In this document: positions 3,521-46,502 of the stretch, one piece after another | How the letters are laid out: every line of letters begins with the position of its first letter | Position numbering within the stretch: position 1 is the stretch's first letter | Source: an uncultured bacterium | GTDB taxonomy: Bacteria; Krumholzibacteriota; Krumholzibacteriia; JACNKJ01 | Direction: 5' to 3' | Assembly: GCA_964410395.1 (NCBI GenBank) | Contig: CAYPGS010000018.1 | Span: forward strand, 1 to 64,000 | DNA: 64,000 nucleotides | The notes under the pieces: generated by a model | Databases searched by the model: none | What the model was told of the DNA's origin: nothing | The model's input: the letters and a program-made list of their open reading frames with translations, nothing else | Translations under genes and position numbers: made by a program

Positions 3521-3676
3521 TCGCATCGGGTGCATCTCTTGCCCTCCCATGGCGAGTTCGGAGTTGACCGACTGTCCCTAAGCATACACCCGCCCGCACC
3601 GATCGTGACGAAGATAGTTGCAGTTTCAAACCCTTGCAGGTGTCATTAGCGTGACCAAGTGCTATCGCATGCGTGG

Positions 3677-3745
3677 AAATAGAGATCGGGGAGGGATGAG
3701 TCCCTCCCCGACTGACTTTCGAAGCGGAAGGAGGGGAGGGAGCTC
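3677..3745. repeat. Double-hairpin element (CGGGGAGGGAtgagTCCCTCCCCG plus an inverted copy ~25 nt downstream); probable bidirectional terminator, copy 1 of 3
   Basis: Two near-identical GC hairpins in opposite orientation immediately 3' of the C25 peptidase gene. Same architecture at 38883-38951 and 42765-42832. Confidence 0.5.
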
Positions 3746-3760
3746 ATCCCTCCCCAACCT

Positions 3761-14430: not shown

Positions 14431-14817
14431 ATGCGCCCCCAACCCCTGATCGCCGTTCGCGACGTCGAAGTCAGCAGCCGCTGGTACCAGCAACTGCTCG
14501 GCTGCCGATCCGGCCACGGCGGGAGGGAGTACGAGCGCCTGTACTTCGGCGAGGAATTGATCCTTCAGTTGCACCACTGGAATGCCCACGAACATCCCCA
14601 CCTGGGCGACGAGCGGTCGAAGCCCCACGGGAACGGCGTGCTTCTCTGGTTCCAGATCGACGACTTCGATGCCGCCGTCGGCCGAATGATCGAGCTGGAT
14701 GCCGAAATTCTGCACGAGCCGCAGGTCAATCCGCGGGCCAATCATCGCGAGGTCTGGCTGCGCGATCCGGACGGCTATGTGGTGGTTCTTGCCGGCAATG
14801 CGGGTGATCTGGGATAG
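14431..14817 (+). CDS. VOC (glyoxalase/bleomycin-resistance) family protein
   Basis: ~125 aa with a paired beta-alpha-beta-beta-beta VOC-like pattern and His/Glu metal-ligand positions. Confidence 0.7.
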   Translation: MRPQPLIAVRDVEVSSRWYQQLLGCRSGHGGREYERLYFGEELILQLHHWNAHEHPHLGDERSKPHGNGVLLWFQIDDFDAAVGRMIELDAEILHEPQVNPRANHREVWLRDPDGYVVVLAGNAGDLG

Positions 14818-14831
14818 CTGCCTGGCCCGTT

Positions 14832-14860
14832 TGACGCGTCCGCCTTCGAGTGGTAAAATC
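14832..14860 (+). promoter_or_regulatory. Sigma70-like promoter candidate for the S8 protease gene (TTGACG-17-TAAAAT)
   Basis: Consensus-like -35 and -10 hexamers with a 17-bp spacer ~30 bp upstream of RBS AAGGGAGG. Confidence 0.35.
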
Positions 14861-14890
14861 GATGCCTATCACGAAAAGGGAGGCATCGAG

Positions 14891-17761
14891 ATGAGGCAGC
14901 TCGCAATCCTGGTATCGGTCATTCTGCTCGTCGCCGGTGGAACCGTCGCCGGCGAGATCCATCCAGCGCTGGAGGACCGGCTCGCCGAACTCGGCGAGGA
15001 CGACACCATCAAGGCCGTGGTCTTTATGGCCGAGCAGGCCCCCATCGCCGAGTTGAATCTCGAGCTGAAATCGCAGCAGGCCAAACTGCGCGACCGCCAT
15101 CGCGAGGTGGTCGAGGCGCTGAAGGATGCCGCCCGTTCCCAGTCGGACCTACTCGACTACCTCGATGAGCGCGACGGTGTGCGTGGATACACCAGCCACT
15201 GGATCGCCAACCTCATCGTCGTCGTGGCGACTCGCGCCGAGATCGAGGCCATCGCAGCCCGCGACGACGTGCTTCAGGTGGAGCCCGACTTCACACCCGA
15301 ACTCATCGCGCCAACGGGCGAGTTCCTTCCAGGCGGCGATCGCCAGATCGGCGTCACCGAGGGCCTGCGCGCCATCCGCGCGCCCGAGGTCTGGTACGAG
15401 CTAGGCTACAACGGTCTGACCACCCTGGTGGGCAGCTTCGACACGGGCGTGGACGGCAGCCATCCCGCCCTGGCCGAGCGTTGGCGCGGCAACCACGCGC
15501 CCTGGAACGAGTGCTGGCTGGATCAGGTGGACAGCGGCACCGACTATCCCTTGGACCTGGACGGCCATGGCACCCACACCTGCGGCACCATCGCTGGCGT
15601 GGCGCCGGACGATTCCATCGGCGTTGCCTGGGGCGCCGAGTGGATCGCCTGCAACGGCATCGATCAACCCGTGAGCGAGGATTTCGACAACGACGTCTTC
15701 GCCGCCCTCGAATGGTTCACCGATCCCGACGGCGACCCGGGAACCATCGACGACGTGCCCGACGTGGTGCAGAACTCCTGGGGCGTGGGCGAGCACCTGA
15801 GTTACCCGTCCTGCTACGACCTCTGGTGGACCACCATCGACAACTGCGAGGCGGCCGGCGTGGTGACGGTCTGGTCGGCCGGCAACCGCGGCCCCGACTC
15901 CCTGACCATCGGCTCTCCCGCCGATCGGGCGGCGAGTCTGACCAACTGCTTCTCGGTGGGCGCGGTGGACGCCACCAACTTCGACTGGCCCTATCCCATC
16001 ACCGACTTCTCCAGCCGCGGTCCGACGACCTGCGAGGTGGACCCGGGCCTGGAGATCAAGCCCGAGGTGGTCGCGCCCGGCGAGGACGTCTATTCCTCGC
16101 TACCCGGCGGAATCTACGGATACAACAGCGGCACCAGCATGTCCGGACCTCACGTGGCCGGCGTGGCCGCGCTCATGCGCCAGGCCGACCCCAACCTCGA
16201 CGTGGACACCATCAAGCAGATCATCATGGACACGGCCGTGGACCTGGGAGATCCGGGCGAGGAGAACACCTACGGCCACGGCCTCATCGACGCCTACGCG
16301 GCGGTGAGTGCGGTGATCGAGGGCTTCGGAACCGTGGAGGGCAGCGTGGTCAACGCGAGTTGGGGCAGCGTGCCGCTCCCCGGAGCGACGATCGAGCTCG
16401 TGGGCGACGGCTACACCTGGTTCACGGACGAGGCCGGCAATTACAGCGGGCTCGCTGCGCCCGGCGACTACACCCTGCGAGCATCGATGCCGGGCTTCGA
16501 GTCGCAGGAGATTCCCATCACCGTGATCGGCGACCTGGCCATCGAGTTCCACTTCGCGCTCACCGACATCGCCGGGCCCATCATCACCGAAGTGAGCGAA
16601 CCCATCACCCTGCCCGGCGGCGGACTCGCCGATCCCATCACCGCGGACATCCTCGACTACAGTACCGTGGCCTCCGCCACCCTGCACTTCCGACTCAACG
16701 GTGGCGACTGGAACCTGAGCTCCATGGTTCCCCGCAGCGGCATCTATGAAGGACTGCTGCCATCGGTGCCGCCCAACACGGCCATCGACTACTACGTGAG
16801 CGCTCTGGACGGCCTGGGTCAGGAGGGCCTGGCGCCCGACGGCGCTCCCGCCGAGTTCTACACCCTGCTCGCCACCGAGCAGGTCTACGCCTACGACGGC
16901 GAGGATCCGCCCGACTTCCAGTGGCGCCTGGGCATGCCCGGCGACGACGCCACCGGCGGACACTGGGTGCGCGTGGATCCCGTGGGCACCGAGCAGAGCG
17001 GCGCGCCGGTGAATCCCGAGGACGACCACACGCCCGACCCCGGCGTGAAGTGCTTCGTCACGGGCAGCGGCACGCCCGGCGAAAACGCCTTCGCCAACGA
17101 CGTGGACGACGGCTGTACCACCCTGCAGAGCCCGGTCTTCGACATCAGCGAGGCCGACGCCGCCTTCATCAGCTACTGGCGCTGGTTCGCCAACGTGCTG
17201 GTCACCGCCGACGACGAATTCGTGGCCGACATCAGCTCCGACGGCGGCGACACCTGGCTGCCGCTGGAGCGGCAGAGCGTCAACGAGAACTTCTGGAAGA
17301 AGACATTCGTGGACCTGGACGGGCTCATCCCCTTCACCGATCAGGTGGTGGTGCGCTACGTGATCTGCGACTACGGACTGCCATCGCTCCTGGACGCGGC
17401 CGTGGACGACTTCTCCGTGGAGACCTACCGGGCCACCAGCACGGGCGTGGCCGACTGGACGCCGGCCTCGGGACCGGCCCTGAGCCTGGCGGGCAGCCAT
17501 CCCAATCCCTGGCGGCCCGACGGGGGCGAATCGCTAATCGGCTTCAGCCTGAACCGCAAGGCGGAGATCAGCCTGCGCATCTACGACATCTCCGGACGCC
17601 TGGTCCGAAGCCTGGCCCGAGGTGATTTCCCCGCGGGAAGTTACGAGATCTCCTGGGACGGGCGTGACTCGCGGGGCCGCGAGGCCTCCTCGGGCATCTA
17701 CTTCTACCGCCTCCAGGGGGCCGGGCAGGAGCTGAGCAGCCGGATGGTGCTCATCCGCTGA
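14891..17761 (+). CDS. Subtilisin-like serine peptidase (S8) with carboxypeptidase-regulatory-like domain and T9SS C-terminal sorting domain
   Basis: Signal peptide MRQLAILVSVILLVAGGTVAG with RBS GGAGG. Catalytic motifs GSFDTGVDGSHPAL (Asp), DGHGTHTCGTIAG (His) and GTSMSGPHVAGVAAL (Ser). C-terminal GIYFYRLQGAGQELSSRMVLIR. The track ORF starts 64 codons too early. Confidence 0.9.
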   Translation: MRQLAILVSVILLVAGGTVAGEIHPALEDRLAELGEDDTIKAVVFMAEQAPIAELNLELKSQQAKLRDRHREVVEALKDAARSQSDLLDYLDERDGVRGYTSHWIANLIVVVATRAEIEAIAARDDVLQVEPDFTPELIAPTGEFLPGGDRQIGVTEGLRAIRAPEVWYELGYNGLTTLVGSFDTGVDGSHPALAERWRGNHAPWNECWLDQVDSGTDYPLDLDGHGTHTCGTIAGVAPDDSIGVAWGAEWIACNGIDQPVSEDFDNDVFAALEWFTDPDGDPGTIDDVPDVVQNSWGVGEHLSYPSCYDLWWTTIDNCEAAGVVTVWSAGNRGPDSLTIGSPADRAASLTNCFSVGAVDATNFDWPYPITDFSSRGPTTCEVDPGLEIKPEVVAPGEDVYSSLPGGIYGYNSGTSMSGPHVAGVAALMRQADPNLDVDTIKQIIMDTAVDLGDPGEENTYGHGLIDAYAAVSAVIEGFGTVEGSVVNASWGSVPLPGATIELVGDGYTWFTDEAGNYSGLAAPGDYTLRASMPGFESQEIPITVIGDLAIEFHFALTDIAGPIITEVSEPITLPGGGLADPITADILDYSTVASATLHFRLNGGDWNLSSMVPRSGIYEGLLPSVPPNTAIDYYVSALDGLGQEGLAPDGAPAEFYTLLATEQVYAYDGEDPPDFQWRLGMPGDDATGGHWVRVDPVGTEQSGAPVNPEDDHTPDPGVKCFVTGSGTPGENAFANDVDDGCTTLQSPVFDISEADAAFISYWRWFANVLVTADDEFVADISSDGGDTWLPLERQSVNENFWKKTFVDLDGLIPFTDQVVVRYVICDYGLPSLLDAAVDDFSVETYRATSTGVADWTPASGPALSLAGSHPNPWRPDGGESLIGFSLNRKAEISLRIYDISGRLVRSLARGDFPAGSYEISWDGRDSRGREASSGIYFYRLQGAGQELSSRMVLIR

Positions 17762-21648: not shown

Positions 21649-22647
21649 ATGATGCCGAGATTCGCCTTGCTTGCCCTTTTCGCAATGGCCAACGCCGTCG
21701 GTGTTTCTGCGGGGGATCTCTCGGGGGGACCGGTCCGGCAGGGCGGCGACACCATCGAACAGGCCACGATCATTCCCGGCCTGCCCTTCCACGCCACGGG
21801 CTCCACGGTGGGCTTCGAGAACGACTACGAAGAGGAATGTCCCTGGTCGGGCGGAACTGCGGCCGACGTGGTCTATGTCTATTCGCCCAGCGTGGACGTG
21901 ACCATCGACATCAGCAGCTGCGGCCCCCTCTACGACACCAAGCTCTACGTCTACGAAGATGAGTTCACGCCCGGCGCACCCCTGGCCTGCAATGACGATC
22001 TCGCCGGCTGCCCCGAGCAGCTCTACGTGGCCTGGATTCGCGGGGTCGGGCTAGTGGGCGGGCACGACTACTATATCGTCGTGGACGGCTGGGCGAATCA
22101 CTCGGGCGGCTACTGGCTCCACGTCGTCGAGTCGCCCGTCGGCGAGACCTGCGATCCGACGGACTATCCCGTGCTCCCCTTCTTCGAGGACGAGACGGAC
22201 TGTCACGACGACTACGTGGACGAGTTCAACAGCGGTTGCGAGAGCCCGCTCGAACCCTTCACCCATGTGCCGTCCACTGTGCTTATCGCGGGAAAGAGCG
22301 GAACCTTCAACGGAAACACGAGCATGGATAGCGACTGGTACCAGATCCTCGTCGAACACAGCTCCACCGTGACCTTCCTCGCCTGCGCGGGCTATCCCAT
22401 GACTGTTTGGCTCTTCGAGGGAGGGCCCTCCTGCCCGCCCACCGACGTGCTCAGCCAGGTTGGCGGCGATCCCTTCCTCGTGTTCGGGGATGGCGTCGAT
22501 GTCGAGCCGGGACCCTACTGGTTCGCGGTCCACCCCACCGAGCAATGGGGCACGCCCTGCGGCGCGGACTATCTGCTCTACATCGAGACCCACACTTCTG
22601 CATCCCGGTTGATGGACTGGGGAGCGCTGAAATCCATGTATCGGTAG
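21649..22647 (+). CDS. Secreted protein with two PPC-like (pre-peptidase C-terminal-like) modules and the conserved WGALKSMYR-type C-terminal tail (family member A)
   Basis: Signal peptide MMPRFALLALFAMANAVGVSAG with RBS GGGGAGG. Two DxDWY..V-like modules (HDYYIVVDGW.., DSDWYQILVEHSSTVTF). C-terminus ..TSASRLMDWGALKSMYR. Confidence 0.6.
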   Translation: MMPRFALLALFAMANAVGVSAGDLSGGPVRQGGDTIEQATIIPGLPFHATGSTVGFENDYEEECPWSGGTAADVVYVYSPSVDVTIDISSCGPLYDTKLYVYEDEFTPGAPLACNDDLAGCPEQLYVAWIRGVGLVGGHDYYIVVDGWANHSGGYWLHVVESPVGETCDPTDYPVLPFFEDETDCHDDYVDEFNSGCESPLEPFTHVPSTVLIAGKSGTFNGNTSMDSDWYQILVEHSSTVTFLACAGYPMTVWLFEGGPSCPPTDVLSQVGGDPFLVFGDGVDVEPGPYWFAVHPTEQWGTPCGADYLLYIETHTSASRLMDWGALKSMYR

Positions 22648-22710
22648 CCTAAAGAATATTCGGTCAGGCAATTGCGCTCAAGCCGATCTCCCTGCTACAC
22701 TATTCAAGAT

Positions 22711-22724
22711 TGTACACGTGTACA
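22711..22724. promoter_or_regulatory. Perfect 14-bp palindrome TGTACACGTGTACA just upstream of the RBS of family member B (recurs at ~38810)
   Basis: Self-complementary CACGTG-core palindrome 6 bp upstream of GGGAGG. A 13/14 identical copy lies in the carB to M36 intergenic region. Confidence 0.3.
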
Positions 22725-22736
22725 GGGAGGTGCGGA

Positions 22737-23416
22737 ATGCGGATCCGTTTCGCTGCCATCGGCTTGCTCATTCTTCTCGGCCCGGCCTGGGCCAGACCCT
22801 CACGAAAGATGGATTCATCAATCCCGGCTCGGGGGATCCAAATTGGCGAGATGTTCGAAGCCTGGTCAACGACGGAAGCTTCGAGTTCGGTGAGTGCGAG
22901 TCGGGAAGCGAGTGGACCTGCTGGAGCACAACTAGTTGCGAGTGGATCGTCAACCCGATCGATACGTGGGGTTATCCGGCCTACGATGGAATCAATGCCG
23001 CTTGGTTAGGAGGATTCTGCGATGGAAAGGCCAACAACAACTCCTATTGCCAGGAGTATTTTAACGCCTGCATGCATCTGAACTTCTATTTTTCAAGTTA
23101 CATAAACTCTGGATGCAGCCAGTTCACTATCACGATGCGCGGAAACACAGTCCATTCCAGGACAATGGAATTCGATGACCACAACTATGGAACTTGGGAG
23201 ACCGCGGCTTCCTACTGGGGACTAATCGATATATCAGCCTACATCGGCATGACCTCGGAACTGTGCTTTTTGTGGACCGCGTGCGGGGAAGACACAAACG
23301 GCGACGGCTACCCCGATGAGGACAATGACAACATACTCATCGATTGTATCTACGGTTCTGAGTGCCAGTTGCCAACCGAAGTCTACAGTTTCTCTTTAGT
23401 CAAAACCCTGTACTAA
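22737..23416 (+). pseudogene. Cys-rich secreted protein, family member B (tail ..SFSLVKTLY), disrupted by a 1-nt frameshift just after the signal peptide
   Basis: Signal peptide MRIRFAAIGLLILLGPAWA is in frame 0 (track ORF 22710..23009); the mature body GQTLTKDGF..GSEWTCWSTTSCEW..SFSLVKTLY is in frame 2 (track ORF 22718..23416). Inserting one base near 22791-22796 (GGCCTGGGCC run) yields a perfect AWA|QT cleavage site. ~50% identical to member C. Confidence 0.55.
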
Positions 23417-23441
23417 GATTATCACGATGGAAACCAGTTGT

Positions 23442-23492
23442 ATGACTTCTACAGAGGAGACATCCCATACCATCGTGAAGACTCTGTACTAG
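23442..23492 (+). other. Tail-only gene remnant encoding ..TSHTIVKTLY* (relic of the family C-terminal tail)
   Basis: A 16-codon ORF between members B and C ends in IVKTLY-stop, mirroring LVKTLY of B and AVKSLY of C. Confidence 0.3.
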
Positions 23493-23506
23493 TGTTGGGA
23501 GGAGCA

Positions 23507-24145
23507 ATGAATCCTTCAAAAGCGATTCTAATCCTACTAGTCGTCACGACTTTTCCTACGGCAGCCGCCTCGACTGTGCAACGAGACTGGACCGTCCCCG
23601 ACTACAGCTTCGAGAATGGTCTCTGCGGTGAAGGCAGCGACTGGACCTGCTGGAGCAGCACCGACTGCCAGTGGATCATCGACGCGGAAGATGTCTGGGG
23701 AGTGCCCGCGGTGCATGGCGAGAACGTCGCCTGGCTGGGCGCCTACTGCAACGGCCTCGCCAACAACAACTCCTTCTGCCAGACCCTGTTCATCCCATGC
23801 TTCCAATATGACTTTCACTGGATGGCCTACATCATGGCGGCCTGTGGCACTCTGACCATCACCCTGGACGGCGAGGTCCGTCTTCAGCACACGATGAACG
23901 AGTCCGACCACAGCTACGGCGAATGGCAGAAAGCTTCCGAGACCTGGGGCAGCATAGACACCTCCTACGAGTATGGAGGCTATGCCACCTTCTGCATCGA
24001 GTGGACCGCCTGCGGAGGAGATCTCGACGGCGACGGATGGCCCGACACCCTGAACGACAGCGTGATCATCGATGTGATCCAGGGCGATGGTTGTGAGGTG
24101 CCCGTCCAGACACTGAGCTTCTCGGCGGTCAAAAGCCTCTACTAG
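23507..24145 (+). CDS. Cys-rich secreted protein, family member C (tail ..SFSAVKSLY)
   Basis: RBS GGGAGGAG; signal peptide MNPSKAILILLVVTTFPTAAAS; GSDWTCWSSTDCQW motif shared with B; C-terminus TLSFSAVKSLY. Confidence 0.65.
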   Translation: MNPSKAILILLVVTTFPTAAASTVQRDWTVPDYSFENGLCGEGSDWTCWSSTDCQWIIDAEDVWGVPAVHGENVAWLGAYCNGLANNNSFCQTLFIPCFQYDFHWMAYIMAACGTLTITLDGEVRLQHTMNESDHSYGEWQKASETWGSIDTSYEYGGYATFCIEWTACGGDLDGDGWPDTLNDSVIIDVIQGDGCEVPVQTLSFSAVKSLY

Positions 24146-24149
24146 CCAC

Positions 24150-24182
24150 AAAAAAAGCCCGCCGCTTCTGGCGGGCTCCCGA
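24150..24182. terminator. Bidirectional rho-independent terminator (AAAAAAAGCCCGCCgcttctGGCGGGCTCCC)
   Basis: GC hairpin flanked by an A-run and T-run between the convergent genes C (+) and D (-). Confidence 0.55.
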
Positions 24183-24198
24183 TTCGACTCAAACACAT

Positions 24199-24924
24199 CT
24201 AGCGATACAGCGCCTTGATGGTGCTCCAGTCGGTGCTCTCTGAGGCCGTGGCTTCCTCTTCCACCGAGAAAGCGTCCAGGTGGATCCAGGCCTCGTAGCC
24301 GTCGGCCACCCGCACGGTGAGATAGTCGCCGCCCACCGGCGCCACGAATCCACCGACCACGTGGGTCCAGCCGCCGGTGCCCGAGGCCGCGACGAAGGCC
24401 AGGGTTCCGAAGCTGGCGTCGCTGGCCGAGATGCCCACCTCGACCACGCCGACGTCGGGGTCAAAGTCCAGATTGGACTCGGCGTAGAACTCGATGGTGT
24501 AGGCGGTGCCCGCGACGATGGACGAGGACAGGCCGAAGGAGAAGGCGTCGGTCACGCCGCCCGTGACCGCAGTCCTATGGATGGAGATCTTCGACACGCC
24601 GCTGGCCGGCGCGCTGGCATAGCCGCAGCTGGTGCCGTCGTTCATGACGTCGATCTCGTCCGCGCCGCCGAAGGCGACGATGTCGGACATGCCTGCGGTC
24701 ACGGTCGCATTGGCCAGATTGAAGTTGCAGCCGGCGGCGATGGTGGTGGCTTCGAAGTCGCCGTTCAGGATGATGTTCGAGCGTTCGCTGGAGCTGGGGG
24801 GCGACTCCGCGGGAATCTCGATCTCGGTGCTCTCAAGCGGCGATGAAGTGCCCTCAAACGCGAAGGCCGAAGCGGTCAATCCGAAGAGTGAGAACATGGC
24901 AAACAATACGATCAGTTTCTTCAT
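24199..24924 (-). CDS. Secreted protein, family member D (tail ..STDWSTIKALYR)
   Basis: Signal peptide MKKLIVLFAMFSLFGLTASAFA; body unrelated to B/C/F/G (NGDFE.. beta-sandwich-like); C-terminus ATASESTDWSTIKALYR. Confidence 0.6.
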   Translation of the reverse strand: MKKLIVLFAMFSLFGLTASAFAFEGTSSPLESTEIEIPAESPPSSSERSNIILNGDFEATTIAAGCNFNLANATVTAGMSDIVAFGGADEIDVMNDGTSCGYASAPASGVSKISIHRTAVTGGVTDAFSFGLSSSIVAGTAYTIEFYAESNLDFDPDVGVVEVGISASDASFGTLAFVAASGTGGWTHVVGGFVAPVGGDYLTVRVADGYEAWIHLDAFSVEEEATASESTDWSTIKALYR

Positions 24925-25125
24925 CTTGGACCATCCTTGTTGAGACGGGTGAGGGGAGGATGGTTTCATCCTCGCGAAACAAGGCTAGCAAGGCTATTCG
25001 AAAAGATGAAGAAAATTCGCCATACTTGATTATCGGGCCCATGGGATATCAAGGCCTGAGAAATGAAAGCCGGGCTAAGCCGTTTGAACCGAGGGAAATA
25101 CGTTCGACTCGGATGTGCAGTGGCC

Positions 25126-26010
25126 TCAGTCCACCTCTTCGGCGCCCTTCAGTTCGAAGTAGCGCCCTTCGAAGAAGTATCCCAGCTTGGGCGGACGCCC
25201 GTAGCGCGCCGCAGCGGAGTCGATGGCGCCGAGGATATCCCGCTTGAGATAGCGCCCCGACAGGTGCATGAGCACCAGGTGCTTCACGCCGGCCTCGGCG
25301 GCCGCGCGGAAACTGGCCTCGATGTGGCCGTGGCTCATGCGGCTCTCTTTCATCTCATCAGAGTTCAGAAAGGTCGAATCGATGAGCAGGGTCTCGGCGC
25401 CGCGCAGCTCGGTGACGTCCTCCACCGGCCGCGTGTCCCCGGTATAGACCAGCAGCGGATGCCAGACCGCTTCGAGGACGGCCTCCTTGCCCTTCTCCTG
25501 AACCAGGCGCCGGATCTCGTCGCCGTCCGCGCCCGCGAATTCGGTTTTGGGAGCGTGGCGCTTCTCCTCGATGCGCCAGCCCAGCGCCTGCCATCCCCGG
25601 GTGTGATCCACGGCGAAGGAACGTACGCGGGTGCGGCGTCGGGTGACCTCCACGTCCACCGTCGCCCCGGGGCCGACGGGATGCCAGTCCAGGTCGTAGC
25701 GCAGGCGATGCTTCTGTTTCTTGTCGAGGTACTCGCGGAGGTATCCGATGAAGGGATCGCCCTCGGGATAGTACACCGCGATGGGGATCTCGCGGTCGCC
25801 GTTGCTCAGGTTGCGCAGATTGACCACGCTGGGCAGCCCCGCGATGTGGTCCTCATGGCCATGGGTGAGGAAGACCTTTCGGATGCCGAAGATCTTCTTG
25901 CCCAGGGCCTGGGATATGCCCTCCCCCGCGTCCAGCATGAGCCGGGCGGGCTTGTAGTAGAACCAGGTGGAGTAGAGGGCCTTGGAGTAGCCGGTCAGCG
26001 TGTTCTGCAT
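25126..26010 (-). CDS. MBL-fold metallo-hydrolase (RNase Z/ElaC-like)
   Basis: LTHGHEDHIAGL (HxHxDH) motif and MBL-fold length; downstream His/Asp ligands present. Confidence 0.75.
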   Translation of the reverse strand: MQNTLTGYSKALYSTWFYYKPARLMLDAGEGISQALGKKIFGIRKVFLTHGHEDHIAGLPSVVNLRNLSNGDREIPIAVYYPEGDPFIGYLREYLDKKQKHRLRYDLDWHPVGPGATVDVEVTRRRTRVRSFAVDHTRGWQALGWRIEEKRHAPKTEFAGADGDEIRRLVQEKGKEAVLEAVWHPLLVYTGDTRPVEDVTELRGAETLLIDSTFLNSDEMKESRMSHGHIEASFRAAAEAGVKHLVLMHLSGRYLKRDILGAIDSAAARYGRPPKLGYFFEGRYFELKGAEEVD

Positions 26011-26217
26011 AGGGGCCTACCATAGTTTCCAGCCTACCGGGGCGCAAGGGTCCGACTTGAAGGATTCCGTTCCCTCGACTAAGCGGCAAAATTCAGAAAT
26101 CACAGATAACTCTTTTGTATTCAATCACTTAGGAAAAACTCCGGGTGCCCATGATCGAGCTTGTTTGGTATTATGAAGATTACTCACCCATAGACGATCC
26201 AGCACCATGGAGGCAAC

Positions 26218-26811
26218 ATGCGCACATTGCTCACGGCCCTAATCATCCTCGCCACAAGCAGCTTCGCCGCGGCCGTGGATATCACCATCACACCCCTGGA
26301 GTACGCTCCGGAAGGTCGTTGGTACGAAGGCCCCGAAAGCTTCGAGAACGCCTTCCCCCCTAGCGGGTGGCACCTGAACATCGAGAACTCGTCATACACC
26401 TGGTTCAAGGGCGGAGAGCCGGCCTTCGACGGCGTCCACAGCGCCACCATCTTCGGCGACACCCACGGCAGCTACTCGGACGAGTGGTTGGGCTTCAACT
26501 ACTCCTACACTGCCAACGAGATTCTCACCTTCGCCATGCGTGGCGACCGGACCCTCACCGGCACCTGTTACATGTACATCGGTGAAGATCTGATCCTCGA
26601 CTTCAGCGCAGATTGGCCCCTGAACTGGGACGAATGGGGACTGGTCACCGTGGACCTCGGAACCACGAACTACGTGGGCTTCCCCAACGTGGCATTCGAC
26701 TGGAACTACGTGGGCACCATGGGCCCTACCGTCCGCCTGGACATGGTCGAGATCACGCAGGGCGTCTCGACTGCGGTCGGCGATTGGAGCACGCTGAAGA
26801 CCCTCTACTAG
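26218..26811 (+). CDS. Secreted protein, family member E (tail ..GDWSTLKTLY)
   Basis: RBS GGAGG; signal peptide MRTLLTALIILATSSFAAA; distinct body; C-terminus STAVGDWSTLKTLY. Confidence 0.6.
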   Translation: MRTLLTALIILATSSFAAAVDITITPLEYAPEGRWYEGPESFENAFPPSGWHLNIENSSYTWFKGGEPAFDGVHSATIFGDTHGSYSDEWLGFNYSYTANEILTFAMRGDRTLTGTCYMYIGEDLILDFSADWPLNWDEWGLVTVDLGTTNYVGFPNVAFDWNYVGTMGPTVRLDMVEITQGVSTAVGDWSTLKTLY

Positions 26812-27005: not shown

Positions 27006-28424
27006 ATGGCGCGCAAGAGAATCGTCATCATGGGCGCGGCGGGCCGCGACTTCCACAACTTCAACGTCCTCTATCGCGACAACGAGGACTACGAAGTCGT
27101 CGCCTTCACCGCCACGCAGATTCCCGATATCGAAGGCCGCAAGTACCCGGCCGCCCTGGCGGGCGATCTTTATCCCAAGGGCATCCCCATTCTCGCCGAG
27201 GAGGACCTGGGCGACATCATCGTCGAGTACGGCGTGGACGAGGTCGTCTTCGCCTACAGCGACGTGACCCACGAGCATGTGATGCACGCCGCCAGCTTCG
27301 TGAACGCCATGGGCCCGGACTTCCGTCTCATCGGCACCAGCGACACGATGATCGAGAGCAGCAAGCCGGTCATCTCCATCTGCGCCACGCGCACCGGCTG
27401 CGGCAAGAGCCAGACCACCCGCGCGGTGGTCGACGTGCTCAAGAGCATGGGCCTGAAGGTCGTCTCGATCCGCCACCCGATGCCCTACGGCGATCTGGCC
27501 AAGCAGGCCGTGCAGCGTTTCGCCACCCTGGCCGACCTGAAGAAGCACAAGTGCACCATCGAGGAGATGGAGGAGTACGAGCCTCACATCGTCGACGGCA
27601 ACGTGATCTACGCGGGCGTGGACTACGAGGCCATCCTCCGCGAGGCCGAGAAGGAAGCGGACGTCATCCTCTGGGACGGCGGCAACAACGACACCAGCTT
27701 CTACCTTCCCGACCTGCTCATCACCGTGGTGGACCCGCTTCGCCCGGGCCATGAGATCGCCTACTACCCCGGCGAGACCAACCTGCTTCAGGCCGACGTG
27801 GTGGTCATCAACAAGATCGACAGCGCCAGCCTCGACGATATCGAGGACGTGCGCGACACGGTGCGCCAGCTGAATCCCCTGGCCGTGATCGTCGACGCCG
27901 CCAGCCCGGTGAGCGTGGAGGATCCCGAGGTCATCGAGGGCAAGCGCGTGCTCGTGGTCGAGGACGGTCCCACCCTGACCCACGGCGAGATGAAACTCGG
28001 CGCGGGCACCGTGGCCGCCCTCAAGCACGGCGCTCAGCCTGTGGATCCCCGCCCCTACCTGAAGGGCACGCTCATCGACACCTTCGAGAAGTACTCGGAG
28101 ATCGGCGTGCTGCTTCCGGCCATGGGATACGGCGGACAGCAGGTCAAAGACCTCGAGGCCACCATCAAGGCCACCGAGTGCGACGCCGTGGTCATCGGCA
28201 CGCCCATCGATCTGCGCCGCGTGGTGAAGATCGACAAGCCCAGCACCCGCGTGACCTATGAGCTGAACCCCATCGGCCGTCCGGATATCGAGGACGTGGT
28301 CGGCGCCTTCCTCCATCAGTACGCCGAGGAGCACGCTCCGAAGCCCAAGCCGAAGGCGAAGAAGAAGGCCGCCAAGAAAGCCACTAAGAAGACGGCCAAG
28401 AAGAAGACTTCGAAGAAGAAGTAG
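27006..28424 (+). CDS. P-loop GTPase-like protein, possibly of the cyclic 2,3-diphosphoglycerate synthetase family, with a Lys-rich histone-H1-like C-terminal tail
   Basis: RIVIMGAAGRDFHNFN N-terminus; P-loop CATRTGCGKSQTT; NKID (G4-like) motif; last 27 residues PKPKAKKKAAKKATKKTAKKKTSKKK. Family assignment is from memory, so tentative. Confidence 0.45.
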   Translation: MARKRIVIMGAAGRDFHNFNVLYRDNEDYEVVAFTATQIPDIEGRKYPAALAGDLYPKGIPILAEEDLGDIIVEYGVDEVVFAYSDVTHEHVMHAASFVNAMGPDFRLIGTSDTMIESSKPVISICATRTGCGKSQTTRAVVDVLKSMGLKVVSIRHPMPYGDLAKQAVQRFATLADLKKHKCTIEEMEEYEPHIVDGNVIYAGVDYEAILREAEKEADVILWDGGNNDTSFYLPDLLITVVDPLRPGHEIAYYPGETNLLQADVVVINKIDSASLDDIEDVRDTVRQLNPLAVIVDAASPVSVEDPEVIEGKRVLVVEDGPTLTHGEMKLGAGTVAALKHGAQPVDPRPYLKGTLIDTFEKYSEIGVLLPAMGYGGQQVKDLEATIKATECDAVVIGTPIDLRRVVKIDKPSTRVTYELNPIGRPDIEDVVGAFLHQYAEEHAPKPKPKAKKKAAKKATKKTAKKKTSKKK

Positions 28425-33078: not shown

Positions 33079-33660
33079 ATGAGGTATTTGGCGATTGCCT
33101 TCCTATTGATTCCCGCCGTCGTTCAGGCCAACTCCATCGGAGTCTACAACCTGGGCGGCCCCTACGATCCCGGCGGCGGCTGAGGCAGCGGTTGGCACTG
33201 CGGGACGGTCGTCCCCTACGTACCCACCGATCTGGTCGTCGTCGCGAATTTCACGCTTGAAGAGGGCATCACGGCCGCCGAGTTCAGAATCGACAATCTC
33301 CCCACCAATGACGGATATCCTTCCGGAACGGTCACCGTGAGCTCCACCTCCGACCTGGTCATCGGTGACTTGTGGTGGGATTTCTCCATCGCATGGTCCG
33401 AGCCCGTCGGGGCCGGCCTGGGCTACGCGGTCATCGCCGAGATCGAATTGCTCATGTTCGATCCGGCCTGGATCGGTTCGGACCGATGGCTCCAGGTTGC
33501 GCCGGGCTACGACTGCGACTGCCTGGTACTCGTCGACTCGATGTTCGATACCCATGATGCCTGGGGAGACACCATGATCCTGAACTGCAATGCCGATTGC
33601 TGGATGTGCCTGACGGCCACGGCGGAAAGCAGCTGGTCGGAAGTGAAGTTGCTCTACTAG
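33079..33660 (+). pseudogene. Cys-rich secreted protein, family member F (tail ..SSWSEVKLLY), interrupted by an in-frame TGA at 33181-33183
   Basis: Strong RBS GAGGAGG and signal peptide MRYLAIAFLLIPAVVQA. The ORF then hits a TGA after 34 codons and continues in the same frame with no further stop through the body, which is homologous to member G. The TGA aligns with a Trp of member G (..DDVWGSECH vs ..GGG*GSGWHC). Confidence 0.5.
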
Positions 33661-34163
33661 ATTCCGAACCAGTGTCCCATCAGAGGTGTGCCCGCGTAAC
33701 GCAGAATCAGCGTGACCAGGGCCATCGAGAAAGAGAATGGCGCGGTGAAGCGCATCAGGGGCATGAGCCGCGCCAATACCAGGGCCAGCACGAAGATCAG
33801 GATGATGGCCAGTGGCCCGACGAAGGCGCCCACCATGGCGATGAGGGCGTAGTCCTCGCCCAGCAGTTTCTCCTTTTCCGGCCGGTCCCCCGACAGTCCC
33901 CTCATGAGGCCCGGCACCAGGGCCAGGATTCCCGAGACCAGGTAGCCCGCCACGATTCCCAGGCCCGAGTGTGACCAGGCGAAATCCGGCGTACGGATCA
34001 GGTAGATGGTCGACAGCACGGCCAGCACCATGCCGAGATAGCTGATCCAGTAGGGCAGCCGCCCGCGTTTCCAGTCATTGGCCAGCAGGGCGCCCAGAAG
34101 GGCGAGGAAGACGATTTCGCGGACGAAAATCATGACGGTCTCCAAGGGGGAGCAGCCAGCCAC
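33657..34163 (-). CDS. Small A24-family prepilin-peptidase-like membrane protein (CpaA/TadV/FlaK-like), tentative
   Basis: Polytopic membrane protein with the two Asp motifs of A24 peptidases (NDWKRGRLPY ~ D..R.IPN, and GEDYALIAMVGAFVG ~ GGDxKLLAALGAWLG). Convergent with member F, overlapping it by 4 bp. Confidence 0.45.
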   Translation of the reverse strand: MAGCSPLETVMIFVREIVFLALLGALLANDWKRGRLPYWISYLGMVLAVLSTIYLIRTPDFAWSHSGLGIVAGYLVSGILALVPGLMRGLSGDRPEKEKLLGEDYALIAMVGAFVGPLAIILIFVLALVLARLMPLMRFTAPFSFSMALVTLILRYAGTPLMGHWFGI

Positions 34164-38956: not shown

Positions 38957-41839
38957 CTACTTGATGAGAACCATGGTCCGGCTCTTCACCTCTCCGTTCG
39001 CCGAGAGGCGATAGAGGTAGACGCCGCTGCCCACGGGGTTGCCCTTCTGATCGCGACCTTCCCAGATGACGCGGTGCTCGCCGGCGACCATCTGGTCGGC
39101 GATGAGGGTGCGCACCAGGCGGCCGTTGACGTCGAAGACCTTCAGATCCACGCGTCCGTCGGTCTCAAGAGCGAACTTGATCTCGGTGCGCGGGTTGAAG
39201 GGATTCGGATGGTTCTGCTCGAGGCGCAGGGGCACGCCGATGGTGAACTCGTCGTCCACGTTCGTGCCGCCGATGACCGCGTGGATCATGAGGTCATCCA
39301 GGGCGCCCTCGACCAAGGTCGGGATGGTGCCGTCCTTGACCTCGAACTTGAACTGAACCTGTCCGGGCTGTGCGAACAGATCGTGCAGGTAGAACTCGTT
39401 GTCCTTCCAATACGCTTCCATCGAACCGGTGTCGACATCCAGTTCGACCCAGTTGGACCCGCCGTCATTCGAGATGGACGCCGTCCAGGAATCACCCGTG
39501 CGACCGTAGTACCAGTACCAGTAGCTGATGTAAACCTCGCTGGCCTGGGTCAAGTCGTAGATGGGCGAAAGCAGCGTGACCGTACCGCCGGTGACGTCGT
39601 TGAAGTTGTCGGCCTCGCCGGGGGTGTGCTGACCGGTCACCCAACACAGGGTTCCGGGGTGGCTGATGTCGTCCTCGGGCTGTGCGGTGGTTCCGATGGG
39701 ATCCGCGCGCTCCCAGTGTCCCGTGCTGGCGGTGGCTTCGGTGCTCCAACCGGCGTCGATCTCCATGTCCTCGAGGCGCCAGGCCACGAAGAACTTGTGG
39801 AAGACGTTCGGAGCGCCCCAAGGCGAGGTTCCCGTGGTGCCCACGGTGTCCTCGGCGTAGATGTAGTAGTCCACCTGACCGGCCTGCTGCCCCGGAATCT
39901 GTCCGAAGAAGTAGGAACCGTTCATGGTATCCATATCCACGCTGTTCCAGCTGCCGCCGTTGTGGCGGTAGTAGATGGTGGCGGATTCGGGATCCAGCGG
40001 ACCCTCGGTGGACGAGATGGTCGCGCCCACGGTGTAGGGACCATCCATGTCGCCGGTGTCCGTCAGCGGAGTGTGCTCGAAGAGCACGCCCACGAGGATG
40101 GGCGGCACGTCGTAACCGTGATGCGTGGCCGCCGCGGAGAGAATGCTGTAGTGAGGCGTTCCATTGTCGAGGTCGCCGTCGTCGTCGTCGGCCATGAAGG
40201 TCCAGAAGACCTGGTCGGGCTGGTTGGTGGGATGCCCCATCAAACGCCCGTAGTGCCAGCGCTCGGCGGCCATGATGGTGCCCAACTCGTCACCGTAGTT
40301 GGACTGCATTCCCATCATGATGTCCCAGTGGAAGCCCGCGATGATCTGACCGTCGTGGTGGATCTGCCCGTTCATGTCTTCGGGGTAGATCAGGTCGTTG
40401 TCGGAGTTGCGGATTCCGTCGGTGCAGTTGCCCAGGTAGAAGCCGCGGCCGATGATGGACTCCTGCGTCATGAGGTTGGCCAGAACGTCGGAGTTACCTT
40501 CACCCAATCCCTGATCGCCCTGCCATCCGAGGATGGCGGCCTGCACGCCGTGACCGAACTCGTGATGCACCACTCCCTGGATCTCACCGGTGTTGGCGCA
40601 GCCGCCGCCTTCGGTGAAGAAGTTGATGCTGCCGTTCCAGTAGGCATTGCAGTTGTCGTTGAGGCTCACGTAAGCGTTCATCCGCTGGTTCGGCAGCGCG
40701 AACTCCGGAGCCCAGAGCTGGAAGAAGTCATGAATATCGTTGACGGCGTTGAAGACGTCGCGCTCGTCGTTCTGAGCGTTGAGGTCATCGTAAGAGATCG
40801 TCAGCGGAGTCCCTTCCCAGGCGGTTCCCGTGAATGTCGCCTCGGGGCCCCCCGAGTTCGTGATGTTGCAATAGGGACCATAGAGGTCGGCCGTGATCTG
40901 GGCCGTACCGCTGGGGCTGCTCCAATCACCATTCTCGTCGGTATAGACCGTTCCGCTGCCCGCAACCTGAACGCGCAGGTAGGGCACGGACTGATCATGG
41001 ATGCCGTTGCACCAGGTGTCCGGCTGCACTTCGGAGTTCGTGTCGCCTTCGATGAAGAAGTGCACATCGTTGTAGCGCCAGACGATCTCGCCGGTATGGG
41101 CGTCCACGTGGGTCACCCAGATACCGACCGGATCGGCCGTATGCACGCGCAGGCGCCAGACCAGGTGATACTCCACGCTCTCCTCGCTGAGGGGCACAGG
41201 GAGCACGACCAGTTCGGGCGCGGCTTCGACGCTGTCCTCGGCGGGATTGAAGCCGACATCCATGCGCGCGATCTGCTCAGCCTGATCGGCGGAGATGGCA
41301 GGCATGGCGGACAGATCGATATCGTTGTAGAGATCCGAGCCCGCAGCAATCAAGCGTCCATCTTCGGTGAAGGCGGCGAAGGCCTTGCCCTGCCAGACTT
41401 CGATTCCCTCGAAGGTCTGAGCGAGATGAGCGACCCACTTGCCCTTGTAGTTCACGCGATCGGTGATCTGCAACTCAACGCCGGCGGCACCGAGGTGCTC
41501 GGCCTGCTCGTCGAAGAGACGAAGCGTGGCGGCGTCAAGATCCACCGCGGAGCGCATGCCAGCGGTGTAGGCAGTGTTGCCGTAGACGATATGAGGCGTG
41601 CCGGCCTGGGAGTTCCAAGACCAGACATGCCAGTTGCCGCCCAGATCCTGGGCGAGTCCCTCTTCCACCGCGGCGCTAGCCTGGAGCGTCGCGAAGGATT
41701 CATAGATGTGGAGGTCGTAGGTGCCGAGAGGGATGGCGAAATCTTGCGAGTGTTCCGGTGCCTTGAACGCCTGGCTCGTGATGAGAACCAGCGCAAGACC
41801 GAGGGTGGTCAGAGCAAGGCTGAAGCGGGACTGCTTCAC
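38957..41839 (-). CDS. M36 (fungalysin)-like gluzincin metalloprotease with FTP/PepSY-like propeptide region and T9SS C-terminal sorting domain (paralog 1)
   Basis: GTG start 8 nt after GGAGG, encoding signal peptide KQSRFSLALTTLGLALVLITSQAFKA. VVHHEFGHGVQAAILG (HExxH) plus downstream GLGEGNSDV (third ligand Glu, EGxSD as in M36). C-terminal GVYLYRLSANGEVKSRTMVLIK. Confidence 0.8.
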   Translation of the reverse strand: MKQSRFSLALTTLGLALVLITSQAFKAPEHSQDFAIPLGTYDLHIYESFATLQASAAVEEGLAQDLGGNWHVWSWNSQAGTPHIVYGNTAYTAGMRSAVDLDAATLRLFDEQAEHLGAAGVELQITDRVNYKGKWVAHLAQTFEGIEVWQGKAFAAFTEDGRLIAAGSDLYNDIDLSAMPAISADQAEQIARMDVGFNPAEDSVEAAPELVVLPVPLSEESVEYHLVWRLRVHTADPVGIWVTHVDAHTGEIVWRYNDVHFFIEGDTNSEVQPDTWCNGIHDQSVPYLRVQVAGSGTVYTDENGDWSSPSGTAQITADLYGPYCNITNSGGPEATFTGTAWEGTPLTISYDDLNAQNDERDVFNAVNDIHDFFQLWAPEFALPNQRMNAYVSLNDNCNAYWNGSINFFTEGGGCANTGEIQGVVHHEFGHGVQAAILGWQGDQGLGEGNSDVLANLMTQESIIGRGFYLGNCTDGIRNSDNDLIYPEDMNGQIHHDGQIIAGFHWDIMMGMQSNYGDELGTIMAAERWHYGRLMGHPTNQPDQVFWTFMADDDDGDLDNGTPHYSILSAAATHHGYDVPPILVGVLFEHTPLTDTGDMDGPYTVGATISSTEGPLDPESATIYYRHNGGSWNSVDMDTMNGSYFFGQIPGQQAGQVDYYIYAEDTVGTTGTSPWGAPNVFHKFFVAWRLEDMEIDAGWSTEATASTGHWERADPIGTTAQPEDDISHPGTLCWVTGQHTPGEADNFNDVTGGTVTLLSPIYDLTQASEVYISYWYWYYGRTGDSWTASISNDGGSNWVELDVDTGSMEAYWKDNEFYLHDLFAQPGQVQFKFEVKDGTIPTLVEGALDDLMIHAVIGGTNVDDEFTIGVPLRLEQNHPNPFNPRTEIKFALETDGRVDLKVFDVNGRLVRTLIADQMVAGEHRVIWEGRDQKGNPVGSGVYLYRLSANGEVKSRTMVLIK

Positions 41840-42097
41840 GGGGAGCCTCCTATATGGAAGGGGGACATGGGGATTGGATGAGGCGATAATTGTAAATTGT
41901 ACCACATATGAACGGAAATTGGGAACGGGGAAGGGGCCGTGCTGCGGTTCTATGGGGAAGATCGGGGCCCCAACCCCTCATCGAGGCTGACGCCCCGAAT
42001 TCAAGAAGGTGAAGATTTTCCAAGAAAATATAAACTTGCCAGGTCCGCAAGAGGCTAACAGCGTTACCCACCACTTCAAAAAACAGCCAGTTGTGGA

Positions 42098-42670
42098 TCA
42101 GAATAGCTGCTTAATGGCACTCCAGCTGGATTCATGGGTCGCTGTCGGGAACCAGGAACAGTAGCACCAGGATGGATCCGTGCAGTTGAAAGTAAACTGC
42201 CCTCCCATGACATCGACGATCTCGAAATCCGCGTCCACGACCACGAGGCACTCGCAGTCGGCTCCCTCTCCAACCGTCATGATCCAGTCATCGAGGATCC
42301 AGGTGGGATCGAACATCGTGAATTCGATGGATCCCAGGTGGATCAAGGGACCCGGCTGGGGCTCGGAGAAGGCGATGGAGAAGTCCCAGGTGATGTCGCC
42401 GATGATCAAATCGCTGTTCCAGTACTCGTAGGCAGATCCTATCGGATAACCTGGGTTACCCGGATAGTTGGCAATTCGGAATTCAGCGGCCGTGACTGCA
42501 TCGATATCCGGTACGACGGCCATCACATGCACCATCATGGGGACGTACTCTTCGATCGGAGCATGGCATTCGGAGCCCCAGACATCGTCGGCGAAGATTC
42601 CGATGAGACCCTGGGCAATGCCAGGACCGGCTACGGCGAGGCACAACATCACAAGCACGAGTTGGCGCAT
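42098..42670 (-). CDS. Cys-rich secreted protein, family member G (tail ..SSWSAIKQLF)
   Basis: RBS GGGAGGG; signal peptide MRQLVLVMLCLAVAGPGIAQG; body homologous to F (..AAEFRI.NYPGNPGYP..WDFSIAFSEP..CECLVVVD..); C-terminus TATHESSWSAIKQLF. Confidence 0.6.
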   Translation of the reverse strand: MRQLVLVMLCLAVAGPGIAQGLIGIFADDVWGSECHAPIEEYVPMMVHVMAVVPDIDAVTAAEFRIANYPGNPGYPIGSAYEYWNSDLIIGDITWDFSIAFSEPQPGPLIHLGSIEFTMFDPTWILDDWIMTVGEGADCECLVVVDADFEIVDVMGGQFTFNCTDPSWCYCSWFPTATHESSWSAIKQLF

Positions 42671-42764
42671 CACATCCCTCCCGTCGAATCGTGGAGCAGA
42701 ACAATTATACACAAATGCCCCATCCTATGGAAAGCGATGGGTAATCTATCGATGCAAATGGAAA

Positions 42765-42832
42765 GGGGAGGGCAGAGGCCCTCCCCGAGTGACATGTGAA
42801 GCTGGAACGAGGGGAGGGCCTCTGCCCTCCCC
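42765..42832. terminator. Double-hairpin element (GGGGAGGGCagagGCCCTCCCC and its exact reverse complement 25 nt away), terminator of the M36-2 gene, copy 3 of 3
   Basis: The second hairpin, GGGGAGGGCctctGCCCTCCCC, is the precise inverse of the first. Located 5 bp from the M36-2 stop. Confidence 0.55.
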
Positions 42833-42837
42833 TATGC

Positions 42838-45765: not shown

Positions 45766-45872
45766 GAACCGGAGACCTCCGATGGAGCGGGAATGGGATT
45801 CGGTGCAGGGTTTAAGTATACCGCTTCCGGCCCCCGCGACCAAGGCCGCCGGCCATCGAGGACTCCTGGATC

Positions 45873-46502
45873 CTAAAGCCCTCGCAGGAAGGGGTTTGAG
45901 GCGGCCTCCTCCACGAGACTGCTGTCGGGACCGTGTCCGCTGTGAAGAACCGTGGAAGGCGGCAGCGCATCGATGATGCGCTCCTTGATCGAGCGCATGA
46001 GCGTGTCGTAGTCGCCGCCCGGCAGGTCGGTGCGGCCGATGGATCCGGCGAAGAGGGTGTCGCCGGCGAAAAGATGACCGTTCAGGCTGAGACACACGCC
46101 CCCGGGACTGTGACCCGGCGTGTGGATGACGCGCACCTCCAGCTCCCCCACCGCGACGGTTTCGCCATCGCGAAGGGGCTCGTCCAGGCGAGGAGGCTTC
46201 GCGGGCTCGATGCCATAGAGGCCACAGATCTGCTCGAGGTTCTCGACCAGGAAGCGGTCGTCCTCATGCATGCGGAAGGGGATCTCGAGACGGCTCTGCA
46301 GCTCCGCCGCGCCCAGCACGTGGTCCACATGGCCGTGAGTGTTCAGGATGCTCTCGATCTGGAGTCCATGCTGCTCGGCGCGGGCGATGAGGGTCTCCAC
46401 CTCGCCGCCTGGATCCACCACGAAGGCCTTCTTCGTCGCGGGATCGCCCACGAGGAAGGTGTTCTCCTGGAATGCGCCCACGGTGAGCATCTCGACGATC
46501 AT
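45873..46502 (-). CDS. MBL-fold hydrolase (hydroxyacylglutathione hydrolase/glyoxalase II-like)
   Basis: THGHVDHV motif and downstream His/Asp ligands (HTPGHSPG); ~209 aa. Directly follows moaA on the same strand. Confidence 0.8.
   Translation of the reverse strand: MIVEMLTVGAFQENTFLVGDPATKKAFVVDPGGEVETLIARAEQHGLQIESILNTHGHVDHVLGAAELQSRLEIPFRMHEDDRFLVENLEQICGLYGIEPAKPPRLDEPLRDGETVAVGELEVRVIHTPGHSPGGVCLSLNGHLFAGDTLFAGSIGRTDLPGGDYDTLMRSIKERIIDALPPSTVLHSGHGPDSSLVEEAASNPFLRGL

Follow-up and report, generated by a model that had tools for sequence, protein, structure and literature searches.

Seven predicted proteins encoded in a 64,000-nucleotide stretch of DNA from an uncultured bacterium of the Krumholzibacteriota (GenBank assembly GCA_964410395.1, contig CAYPGS010000018.1, positions 1 to 64,000; hereafter the window) end in the same short C-terminal tail, which is on balance probably a modular address or anchoring tag of approximately 16 residues without a transmembrane segment. 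The evidence for this reading comes from the position and conservation of the tail, the diversity of the exported proteins that carry it, and its interchange with established anchoring modules on related protein bodies. A first-pass annotation of the window, made from the sequence alone, had already listed seven exported proteins (A to G) as sharing this ending, and all seven tails were located where it had placed them. It had also called these proteins a paralogous family, which is a misnomer for a tag common to several families, and had reported two disrupted members and a tail-only relic, each of which can be recognized in the window. The tail-bearing features are as follows; scores in bits are those of a tail hidden Markov model (HMM), a profile of 42 tails.

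A, 21649..22647, plus strand: 332 residues, signal peptide, two pre-peptidase C-terminal (PPC)/collagen-binding-like beta-sandwich domains; tail at 22591-22644, HTSASRLMDWGALKSMYR, ending in ..DWGALKSMYR
B, 22737..23416 (open reading frame, ORF, also given from 22718), plus strand: Cys-rich body; tail at 23360-23413, ECQLPTEVYSFSLVKTLY, ending in ..SFSLVKTLY
Tail-only relic, 23439..23489, plus strand, between B and C: ORF of 30 residues, CMTSTEETSHTIVKTLY followed by a stop codon; 13.2 bits
C, 23507..24145 (also given from 23438), plus strand: 212 residues from ATG, paralogue of B; tail at 24092-24142, CEVPVQTLSFSAVKSLY, ending in ..SFSAVKSLY; 22.5 bits
D, 24199..24924 (also given to 24969), minus strand: 241 residues, signal peptide; tail at 24202-24255, EATASESTDWSTIKALYR, ending in ..DWSTIKALYR; 23.3 bits
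E, 26218..26811, plus strand: 197 residues, signal peptide, uncharacterised body; tail at 26758-26808, QGVSTAVGDWSTLKTLY, ending in ..DWSTLKTLY; 18.0 bits
F, 33081..33660, plus strand: cohesin-like member of the F/G family, frameshift near 33160-33185; tail at 33604-33657, MCLTATAESSWSEVKLLY, ending in ..SWSEVKLLY; 26.6 bits
G, 42098..42670, minus strand: 190 residues, signal peptide, cohesin-like beta-sandwich; tail at 42101-42151, FPTATHESSWSAIKQLF, ending in ..SWSAIKQLF

Position and conservation of the tail

In the six-frame translation of the window, a loose regular expression for the tail ([WFY][SGA].[ILVM]K.[LMIV][YFW]) has exactly seven matches, all seven of which lie 0-1 residue from a stop codon, compared with a mean of 0.025 matches, none of them stop-adjacent, expected by chance from 200 first-order Markov resamplings. 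When applied to the ORFs of the window, the tail HMM gives 17-28 bits for A-G and 13 bits for the relic, against less than 7 bits for the rest. The codons used for the conserved residues vary among copies (TGG-AGC, TGG-TCG, or TGG-AGT; AAA or AAG; CTG, CTC, TTG, or CTA); therefore, the conservation is selective and operates at the protein level, i.e., by purifying selection, rather than being left over from recent DNA duplication.

The consensus of the tail, approximately 16 residues in length, is [TV]-[PA]-[TVA]-[EQ]-x-[ST]-[TS]-W-[GS]-x-[VI]-K-[AS]-L-[YF]-(R), and a W-S variant lacking the Arg is the form used by the lineage of the window. The Lys is invariant in every tail observed, and what follows the aromatic residue is variable (none, R, Q, H, DD, or RQGSP). 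A helical wheel drawn from the sequence places Trp, Ile/Val, Leu, and Tyr/Phe together on one side of the helix, opposite Lys and Arg.

Homologues of G with 42-63% identity, one of which is named Candidatus Krumholzibacteriota, all end in ..T-A-T-x-x-S-S-W-S-A-V-K-x-L-F/Y. In 131 kb around such homologues from five metagenome-assembled genomes (MAGs), 23 of 23 motif copies lie 0-2 residues from a stop codon, and the genes concerned invariably form tandem F/G-family arrays. In addition, a scan of JGI metagenome DNA with the pattern W-G-x-[IV]-K-x-L-Y-R-stop, covering at least 120 loci, yielded at least 134 pattern matches, and among the matches listed 134 of 134 close an ORF in frame. At position -10, which is not fixed by the DNA pattern, T or S is present in 118 of 130 tails, and positions -16 (T/V), -15 (P/A), -14 (T/V/A), and -13 (E/Q) are also conserved without any constraint from the pattern; it is these unconstrained positions that define a module of 16 residues. 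The metagenome loci contain a further 16 motif copies that were not seeded by the pattern, of which 15 are terminal and one lies six residues before the stop codon. By exact look-ups, two carriers of the tail were placed in clusters named Candidatus Eisenbacteria and Candidatus Krumholzibacteria. The carriers, well over a hundred beyond the window, are distributed over Krumholzibacteriota, Eisenbacteria, and metagenomes.

A search with a tail-only HMM against 1.84 billion representative proteins gave 10 hits at E<=1e-3, among which P0020, P0022, and P0025 were discarded as repeat-protein false positives. The hits P0021, P0023, P0024, P0026, P0027, and P0029 are lipoproteins of one to three modules with a conserved tail after every module, and some tail copies are therefore internal; in P0027, two tails stand back to back. 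The modules of these lipoproteins have weak, sub-threshold NTF2-like Pfam matches (DUF4440/SnoaL), and the NTF2-like carriers possess a lipobox Cys.

Diversity of the tail-bearing proteins and interchange with known anchors

After the signal peptide and the tail had been removed, 96 carriers fell into 47 BLAST clusters of bodies. Pfam domains detected in these bodies include LTD, NHL propellers, CHRD, beta-helix, X25, and Cleaved_Adhesin, and other bodies are cohesin-like, PPC/collagen-binding-like, or weakly NTF2-like. The F/G bodies are among the commonest, the F/G profile matching approximately 19 of the metagenome carriers. Most carriers have Sec or lipoprotein signal peptides; by a crude test, a signal-peptide-like N-terminus was found in 77 of 90 tail ORFs versus 73 of 185 neighbours.

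Within the window, clear signal peptides are present in A, C, D, E, and G. B carries a 1-bp deletion in its signal-peptide region which throws the signal peptide out of frame, whereas a strain of 99% identity from a different sample (locus L003, 1604-2284) has an intact counterpart of 226 residues; the indel site, at 22737-22800 of the window, reads CCC-GG versus CCCTGG in L003, and represents either strain-level inactivation or an assembly error. In F, the frameshift lies downstream of the signal peptide, which sits in another frame. The body of B includes a thrombospondin-type-3-like Asp-rich loop (called by eye), that of D has a weak likeness to choice-of-anchor C (TIGR04362, E=2e-5, under its cut-off), and a protein identical to E is encoded on contigs of several publicly available sequencing runs. 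Every body examined is beta-rich. The earlier statement that the bodies are unrelated stands for most pairs, between which no similarity was found, but not for the paralogue pairs B/C (48.6% identity) and F/G (46.7% identity), nor strictly for B-E (E=6e-4) and D-E (E=0.03), in which a faint similarity is present.

The idea that the tail is a sorting tag, also put forward in the first-pass annotation, gains independent support from a comparison with related or domain-matched bodies elsewhere, which carry type IX secretion system (T9SS) C-terminal domains (CTDs), dockerins, or PEP-/IPTL-/GlyGly-CTERM-type signals. NCBIfam models matching the bodies of carriers include ScyF (a PEP-CTERM protein, 1e-60), ExeM (GlyGly-CTERM), PepA (PEP-CTERM), and choice-of-anchor J and X. 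Homologues of the body of A were searched with a chimeric query (A+C+D+E+NTF2-like module), and all 116 proteins listed share the module of A. Among these 116 large proteins with the two-domain unit of A, 31 have T9SS CTDs (PF18962/PF13860), nine have PF00404 dockerins, three (P0101, P0110, and P0111) end in IPTL/PEP-CTERM-like signals (IPTMSTWGLVVLAL...GRR), and four (P0084, P0051, P0052, and P0057) end in the tail. Since the same bodies are followed by a T9SS CTD, a dockerin, a PEP-CTERM-type signal, or the tail, the latter fills the slot of known surface-sorting or anchoring modules, and this interchange is a "choice-of-anchor" pattern.

The start of the signal in P0101, P0110, and P0111 resembles the tail by eye (P-T-x-S-T-W-G-x-V). 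Homology between the tail and IPTL/PEP-CTERM signals was nevertheless rejected: the likeness is one seen by eye only, and the tail HMMs score nothing on the IPTL-like termini.

Domain models and predicted structures

The tails of A-G have no Pfam or NCBIfam match at E<=1, the T9SS type A and type B models and all CTERM models being among those searched. In 87 further carriers, no Pfam or NCBIfam model matches the tail and no family is common to the carriers; hence, the tail itself is covered by no model in these libraries. The same libraries readily detect FlgD_ig/Por_Secre_tail domains in the five large cargo proteins of the window, from whose T9SS CTD the tail had been said to differ. More specifically, the type-A CTD (TIGR04183, PF18962, PF13860-like) is absent from the A-G tails at E<=1 and from those of the 87 carriers, and the type-B CTD (TIGR04131 / PF13585 CHU_C) has no match in either set. 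Dockerin PF00404 does not match the tail either, and the 16 residues contain no Asp-rich loop. An LPXTG-like sortase signal (motif, transmembrane helix, and basic tail) is present in none of the tails examined. The tripartite layout of PEP-CTERM-type signals, including IPTL-, GlyGly-, and MYXO-CTERM, is likewise not that of the tail, in line with the earlier remark on the missing transmembrane-plus-basic arrangement: only eight residues follow the Trp, among them the invariant Lys and at most one Arg. The features of an Omp85/BAM beta-signal are also lacking, in that the modelled bodies (G and A) are soluble beta-sandwiches, R, Q, or H often stands after the aromatic residue, and the hydrophobic spacing is helical.

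Structures of G and A were predicted with AlphaFold2. In both cases the body was modelled with confidence, and the tail appeared as a detached, flexible extension with one short helix and a predicted local distance difference test score (pLDDT) below 50. The modelled G body has a nine-stranded jelly-roll fold as in solved cohesins, and the modelled A body a collagenase-type PPC/collagen-binding fold. As G and A have different folds and the tail lies outside each, the same detached tail occurs on two folds; in the model of G, the tail is left undocked on the G body. The F/G body has no match to the Pfam cohesin model (PF00963), and in five or six related loci a gene for a protein with a dockerin-like C-terminus lies directly upstream of the F/G arrays.

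Gene neighbourhoods

Recurrent neighbours of the tail genes are limited to T9SS-CTD cargo, which accounts for 11 of 120 neighbour genes and is found in 21 of the 42 metagenome loci that are 3.5 kb or longer. Among these 120 neighbour genes, which come from genome fragments only, there is no exosortase, rhombosortase, or myxosortase. In the window, T9SS type-A/FlgD_ig cargo is encoded by five genes (at 2240-8464, 14699-17761, and 38957-46095): a WD40 propeller, a C25 gingipain-like protease of 1567 residues, an S8 subtilase, and two M36-like metalloprotease paralogues, which flank G.

A conserved arrangement was observed around the F/G arrays. In loci L007, L008, L009, L011, L014, and L021, a secreted protein of approximately 215 residues, the C-terminus of which resembles a dockerin double repeat on motif inspection, precedes the main F/G array, giving a gene set that consists of a dockerin-like protein followed by three to five tandem cohesin-like F/G tail genes. 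In L007, L009, L011, and L021, a Peptidase_C25+FlgD_ig protein is encoded downstream of the array (gene sets at L007 8448-15559, L009 8452-15686, L011 8425-16721, and L021 9224-16303). Over positions 5-739, the PorU model NF033707 matches this protein in L009 (E=4e-32) and L011 (E=2e-27) with scores far under the curated cut-off (111 versus 420 bits), and for the PorU-like proteins of L007 and L021 the assignment relies solely on domain architecture and position. The adjacency to a PorU-like gene is absent in L012, L014, and L019/L020; because it is missing in the more distant loci, it may reflect synteny that the related MAGs have inherited. The cohesin-like/dockerin-like/PorU-like gene set may serve in surface assembly or in T9SS attachment.

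Cohesin-like and dockerin-like modules are both present in this lineage. In the window itself, a DUF7901 protein of 281 residues (59529-60374, plus strand; PF25470, E=2.6e-29) has a dockerin-like double repeat at its C-terminus (DFNGDKAVTIADLGIFA ... DCNGVTDIADFAIFASHYY). Pfam Dockerin_1 is silent on the dockerin-like proteins even at E<=10, and the label is based on motif inspection and on weak similarity to the part of P0030 that Pfam confirms as a dockerin.

Two genes of the window were tried and rejected as partners of the tail. One is an A24-like gene, which the first-pass annotation had correctly recognized and had suggested as a candidate; it encodes a small Peptidase_A24 (27.5 bits), and no A24 homologue lies near tail genes in other loci. 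The other is an MBL-fold gene within the A-E cluster, which lacks a signal peptide and is not a recurrent neighbour.

Several further genes are recorded here as observations in their own right. The A24 gene (33657-34163, minus strand) encodes a Peptidase_A24-family membrane protein of 168 residues, is convergent with F, and overlaps the stop codon of F by 4 bp. A protein of 472 residues encoded at 27006-28424 on the plus strand has a Lys-rich, low-complexity C-terminus (KKAAKKATKKTAKKKTSKKK). In a single case (L017, 1115-4625), a gene for an outer-membrane barrel of the FadL/Toluene_X family lies directly upstream of that for the tail-bearing beta-helix protein P0057; PorV is a member of the FadL-like family.

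Proposed role of the tail and alternative explanations

If the tail is an address or anchoring tag, its carriers would be exported via Sec or as lipoproteins and their bodies would fold, leaving the tail exposed on a short linker of Thr, Pro, and Glu. The last eight or nine residues of the tail would then form a small amphipathic helix, with Trp, Ile/Val, Leu, and Tyr/Phe together on one face and, opposite them, the invariant Lys and the Arg that often ends the tail. A putative envelope component would bind this helix non-covalently and would hold its bearer at, or deliver it to, the cell surface or outer membrane, the role that a T9SS CTD, a dockerin, or a PEP-CTERM-type signal plays on homologous bodies in other organisms. 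The analysis establishes the export signals, modularity, C-terminal position, flexibility, purifying selection, wide distribution, and interchange with known anchors; that the tail binds a receptor, where its carriers end up, and whether it is cleaved or kept are matters of inference.

Several points weigh against such a role. The confidence of AlphaFold2 in the tail helix is low, every carrier comes from an uncultured organism, and no dedicated receptor, sortase, or translocon was found around the tail genes among the 120 metagenome neighbours and related loci. The T9SS-cargo neighbours may simply mirror the lineage. In addition, the internal copies of the tail in multi-module lipoproteins are unexpected for a strictly C-terminal sorting signal.

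Among the alternatives, a tie between the tail and type IX secretion, either as a minimal signal for the T9SS or its attachment complex that serves small proteins or with the Lys as an acceptor of PorU-type ligation, appears unlikely. It would fit the abundance of type-A/FlgD_ig cargo in tail-bearing genomes (the five window genes and the 21 of 42 metagenome loci), the position of tandem cohesin-like tail genes directly upstream of the Peptidase_C25+FlgD_ig protein in L007, L009, L011, and L021, and the Lys found in all tails observed. However, known T9SS signals are beta-sandwich domains of 70-100 residues and the tail matches no T9SS model, the PorU-like genes are not adjacent in L012, L014, and L019/L020 and their adjacency elsewhere is possibly inherited synteny, and the PorU-like scores reach 111 bits against a cut-off of 420. 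If the Lys were the acceptor, cohesin-like modules and lipoproteins with the tail would act as protein anchors. The most explicit form of this idea, in which a PorU-type sortase of candidate phyla of the Fibrobacterota-Chlorobiota-Bacteroidota (FCB) group ligates CTD-cleaved cargo to the Lys, so that such anchors replace anionic lipopolysaccharide, is to be regarded as very improbable, and a separate envelope-sorting pathway with its own putative receptor may be a less radical alternative to it. We also consider it rather doubtful that the tail is a protein-protein assembly motif, e.g., a ligand of the cohesin-like F/G modules or of some other scaffold in the manner of a miniature dockerin. 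The cohesin-like nature and frequency of the F/G bodies, the dockerin-like proteins whose genes lie next to the F/G arrays and in the window, the alternation of the tail with dockerins on homologous bodies, and the repeated and internal copies, which suit a multivalent ligand, all speak for it; on the other side, the tail lacks the Ca-binding repeats of dockerins, AlphaFold2 does not dock the G tail to its own body, a dockerin-like partner for the cohesin-like modules is already encoded next door, and the F/G proteins themselves bear the tail.

The first-pass annotation had further considered recognition through the C-terminus itself, and an Omp85/BAM beta-signal, a PDZ ligand, or a degron for a tail-specific protease would indeed be consistent with the aromatic residue at or next to the C-terminus and with the nearly always terminal position of the motif. 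This class of explanations is highly improbable given that the residues after the aromatic one vary, the hydrophobic pattern is helical rather than alternating, the two modelled bodies are soluble beta-sandwiches and not barrels, and conserved internal copies exist. It had also been thought that the tail might be merely the last strand of a known domain, or the result of recent duplication in one genome. The paralogue pairs B/C and F/G, the weak B-E and D-E similarities, and the beta-rich nature of the bodies examined would point in this direction, but both versions are refuted: no Pfam or NCBIfam model matches the tail, which lies outside two different AlphaFold2 folds; its carriers form 47 body clusters, with synonymous codon differences among the copies; and it is present in proteins of Eisenbacteria and Krumholzibacteria and in many metagenomes, being conserved in G-family homologues from at least five MAGs and found in more than 134 metagenome genes. 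A modular tag for envelope address or anchoring is the reading that we favour.

Significance and comparison with known systems

C-terminal sorting signals have previously led to the processing machines that act on them, such as sortase, exosortase, archaeosortase, rhombosortase, myxosortase, and PorU. The tail is built differently from the sortase-type and PorU signals, being neither a membrane helix nor a folded domain, and it is abundant, with seven copies in 64 kb and at least 134 in the metagenome scan. Dozens of families of secreted proteins bear it, and they come from at least two uncultured candidate phyla. The tail is described by no curated Pfam or NCBIfam family and was not found in the literature searched, which covered its motif, choice-of-anchor proteins, and T9SS in Eisenbacteria and Krumholzibacteria. 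As no curated model exists, its carriers are currently annotated as unrelated hypothetical proteins, and a profile of the tail would flag a class of probable surface proteins in the genomes of Krumholzibacteriota and Eisenbacteria and would permit phylogenetic profiling for a partner. The tail raises the question of how diderm bacteria place proteins by means of a 16-residue peptide, and the cohesin-like/dockerin-like set beside a PorU-like gene suggests that these phyla have a surface-assembly system.

With regard to known systems, the tail is short, like PEP-, IPTL-, GlyGly-, and MYXO-CTERM signals, and like them it stands at the very end of many unrelated proteins exported via Sec; the same body families bear either the tail or a PEP-, IPTL-, or GlyGly-CTERM signal. 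The first half of the tail (P-T-x-x-S-T-W-G-x-V) also looks, by eye, like the start of IPTL/PEP-CTERM signals (e.g., IPTMSTWGLVV). Unlike these signals, the tail has neither a transmembrane helix nor an Arg cluster in the eight residues, invariant Lys included, that follow its Trp; it matches no NCBIfam CTERM model, and no sortase-like partner is present among the neighbours examined. The T9SS type-A CTD (TIGR04183/PF18962/FlgD_ig-like) occurs in the same genomes and neighbourhoods as the tail and is an alternative C-terminus on homologous bodies, but it is a folded beta-sandwich of approximately 70-100 residues, whereas the tail has approximately 16 residues, is predicted to be flexible, and matches no such model.

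Dockerins, which act by docking, resemble the tail in being C-terminal, non-membrane modules on diverse secreted bodies, and they alternate with it on A-like bodies; they differ in having approximately 60-70 residues with two Ca-binding repeats of approximately 22 residues each, a length and a feature that the tail does not have. In cellulosomes, anchoring scaffoldins pair a cohesin with a cell-surface anchor, and the combination of a cohesin-like module with the tail parallels this design. The beta-signal of outer membrane proteins and the C-terminal YRK of Lpp are similar to the tail in the aromatic residue at or near the C-terminus, the Lys near the end, and the ...K-x-L-Y-R ending. The tail nevertheless has no alternating hydrophobic residues and no fixed terminal residue, and its modelled bodies are not barrels, unlike those of the beta-signal; Lpp uses its very last Lys, whereas the Lys of the tail lies four or five residues from the end. 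Finally, the cargo peptides of encapsulins and microcompartments, in which a short conserved helix on a flexible linker is borne by unrelated cargo and recognized non-covalently, come close to the build proposed here; such targeting takes place in the cytoplasm, whereas the tail-bearing proteins have signal peptides.

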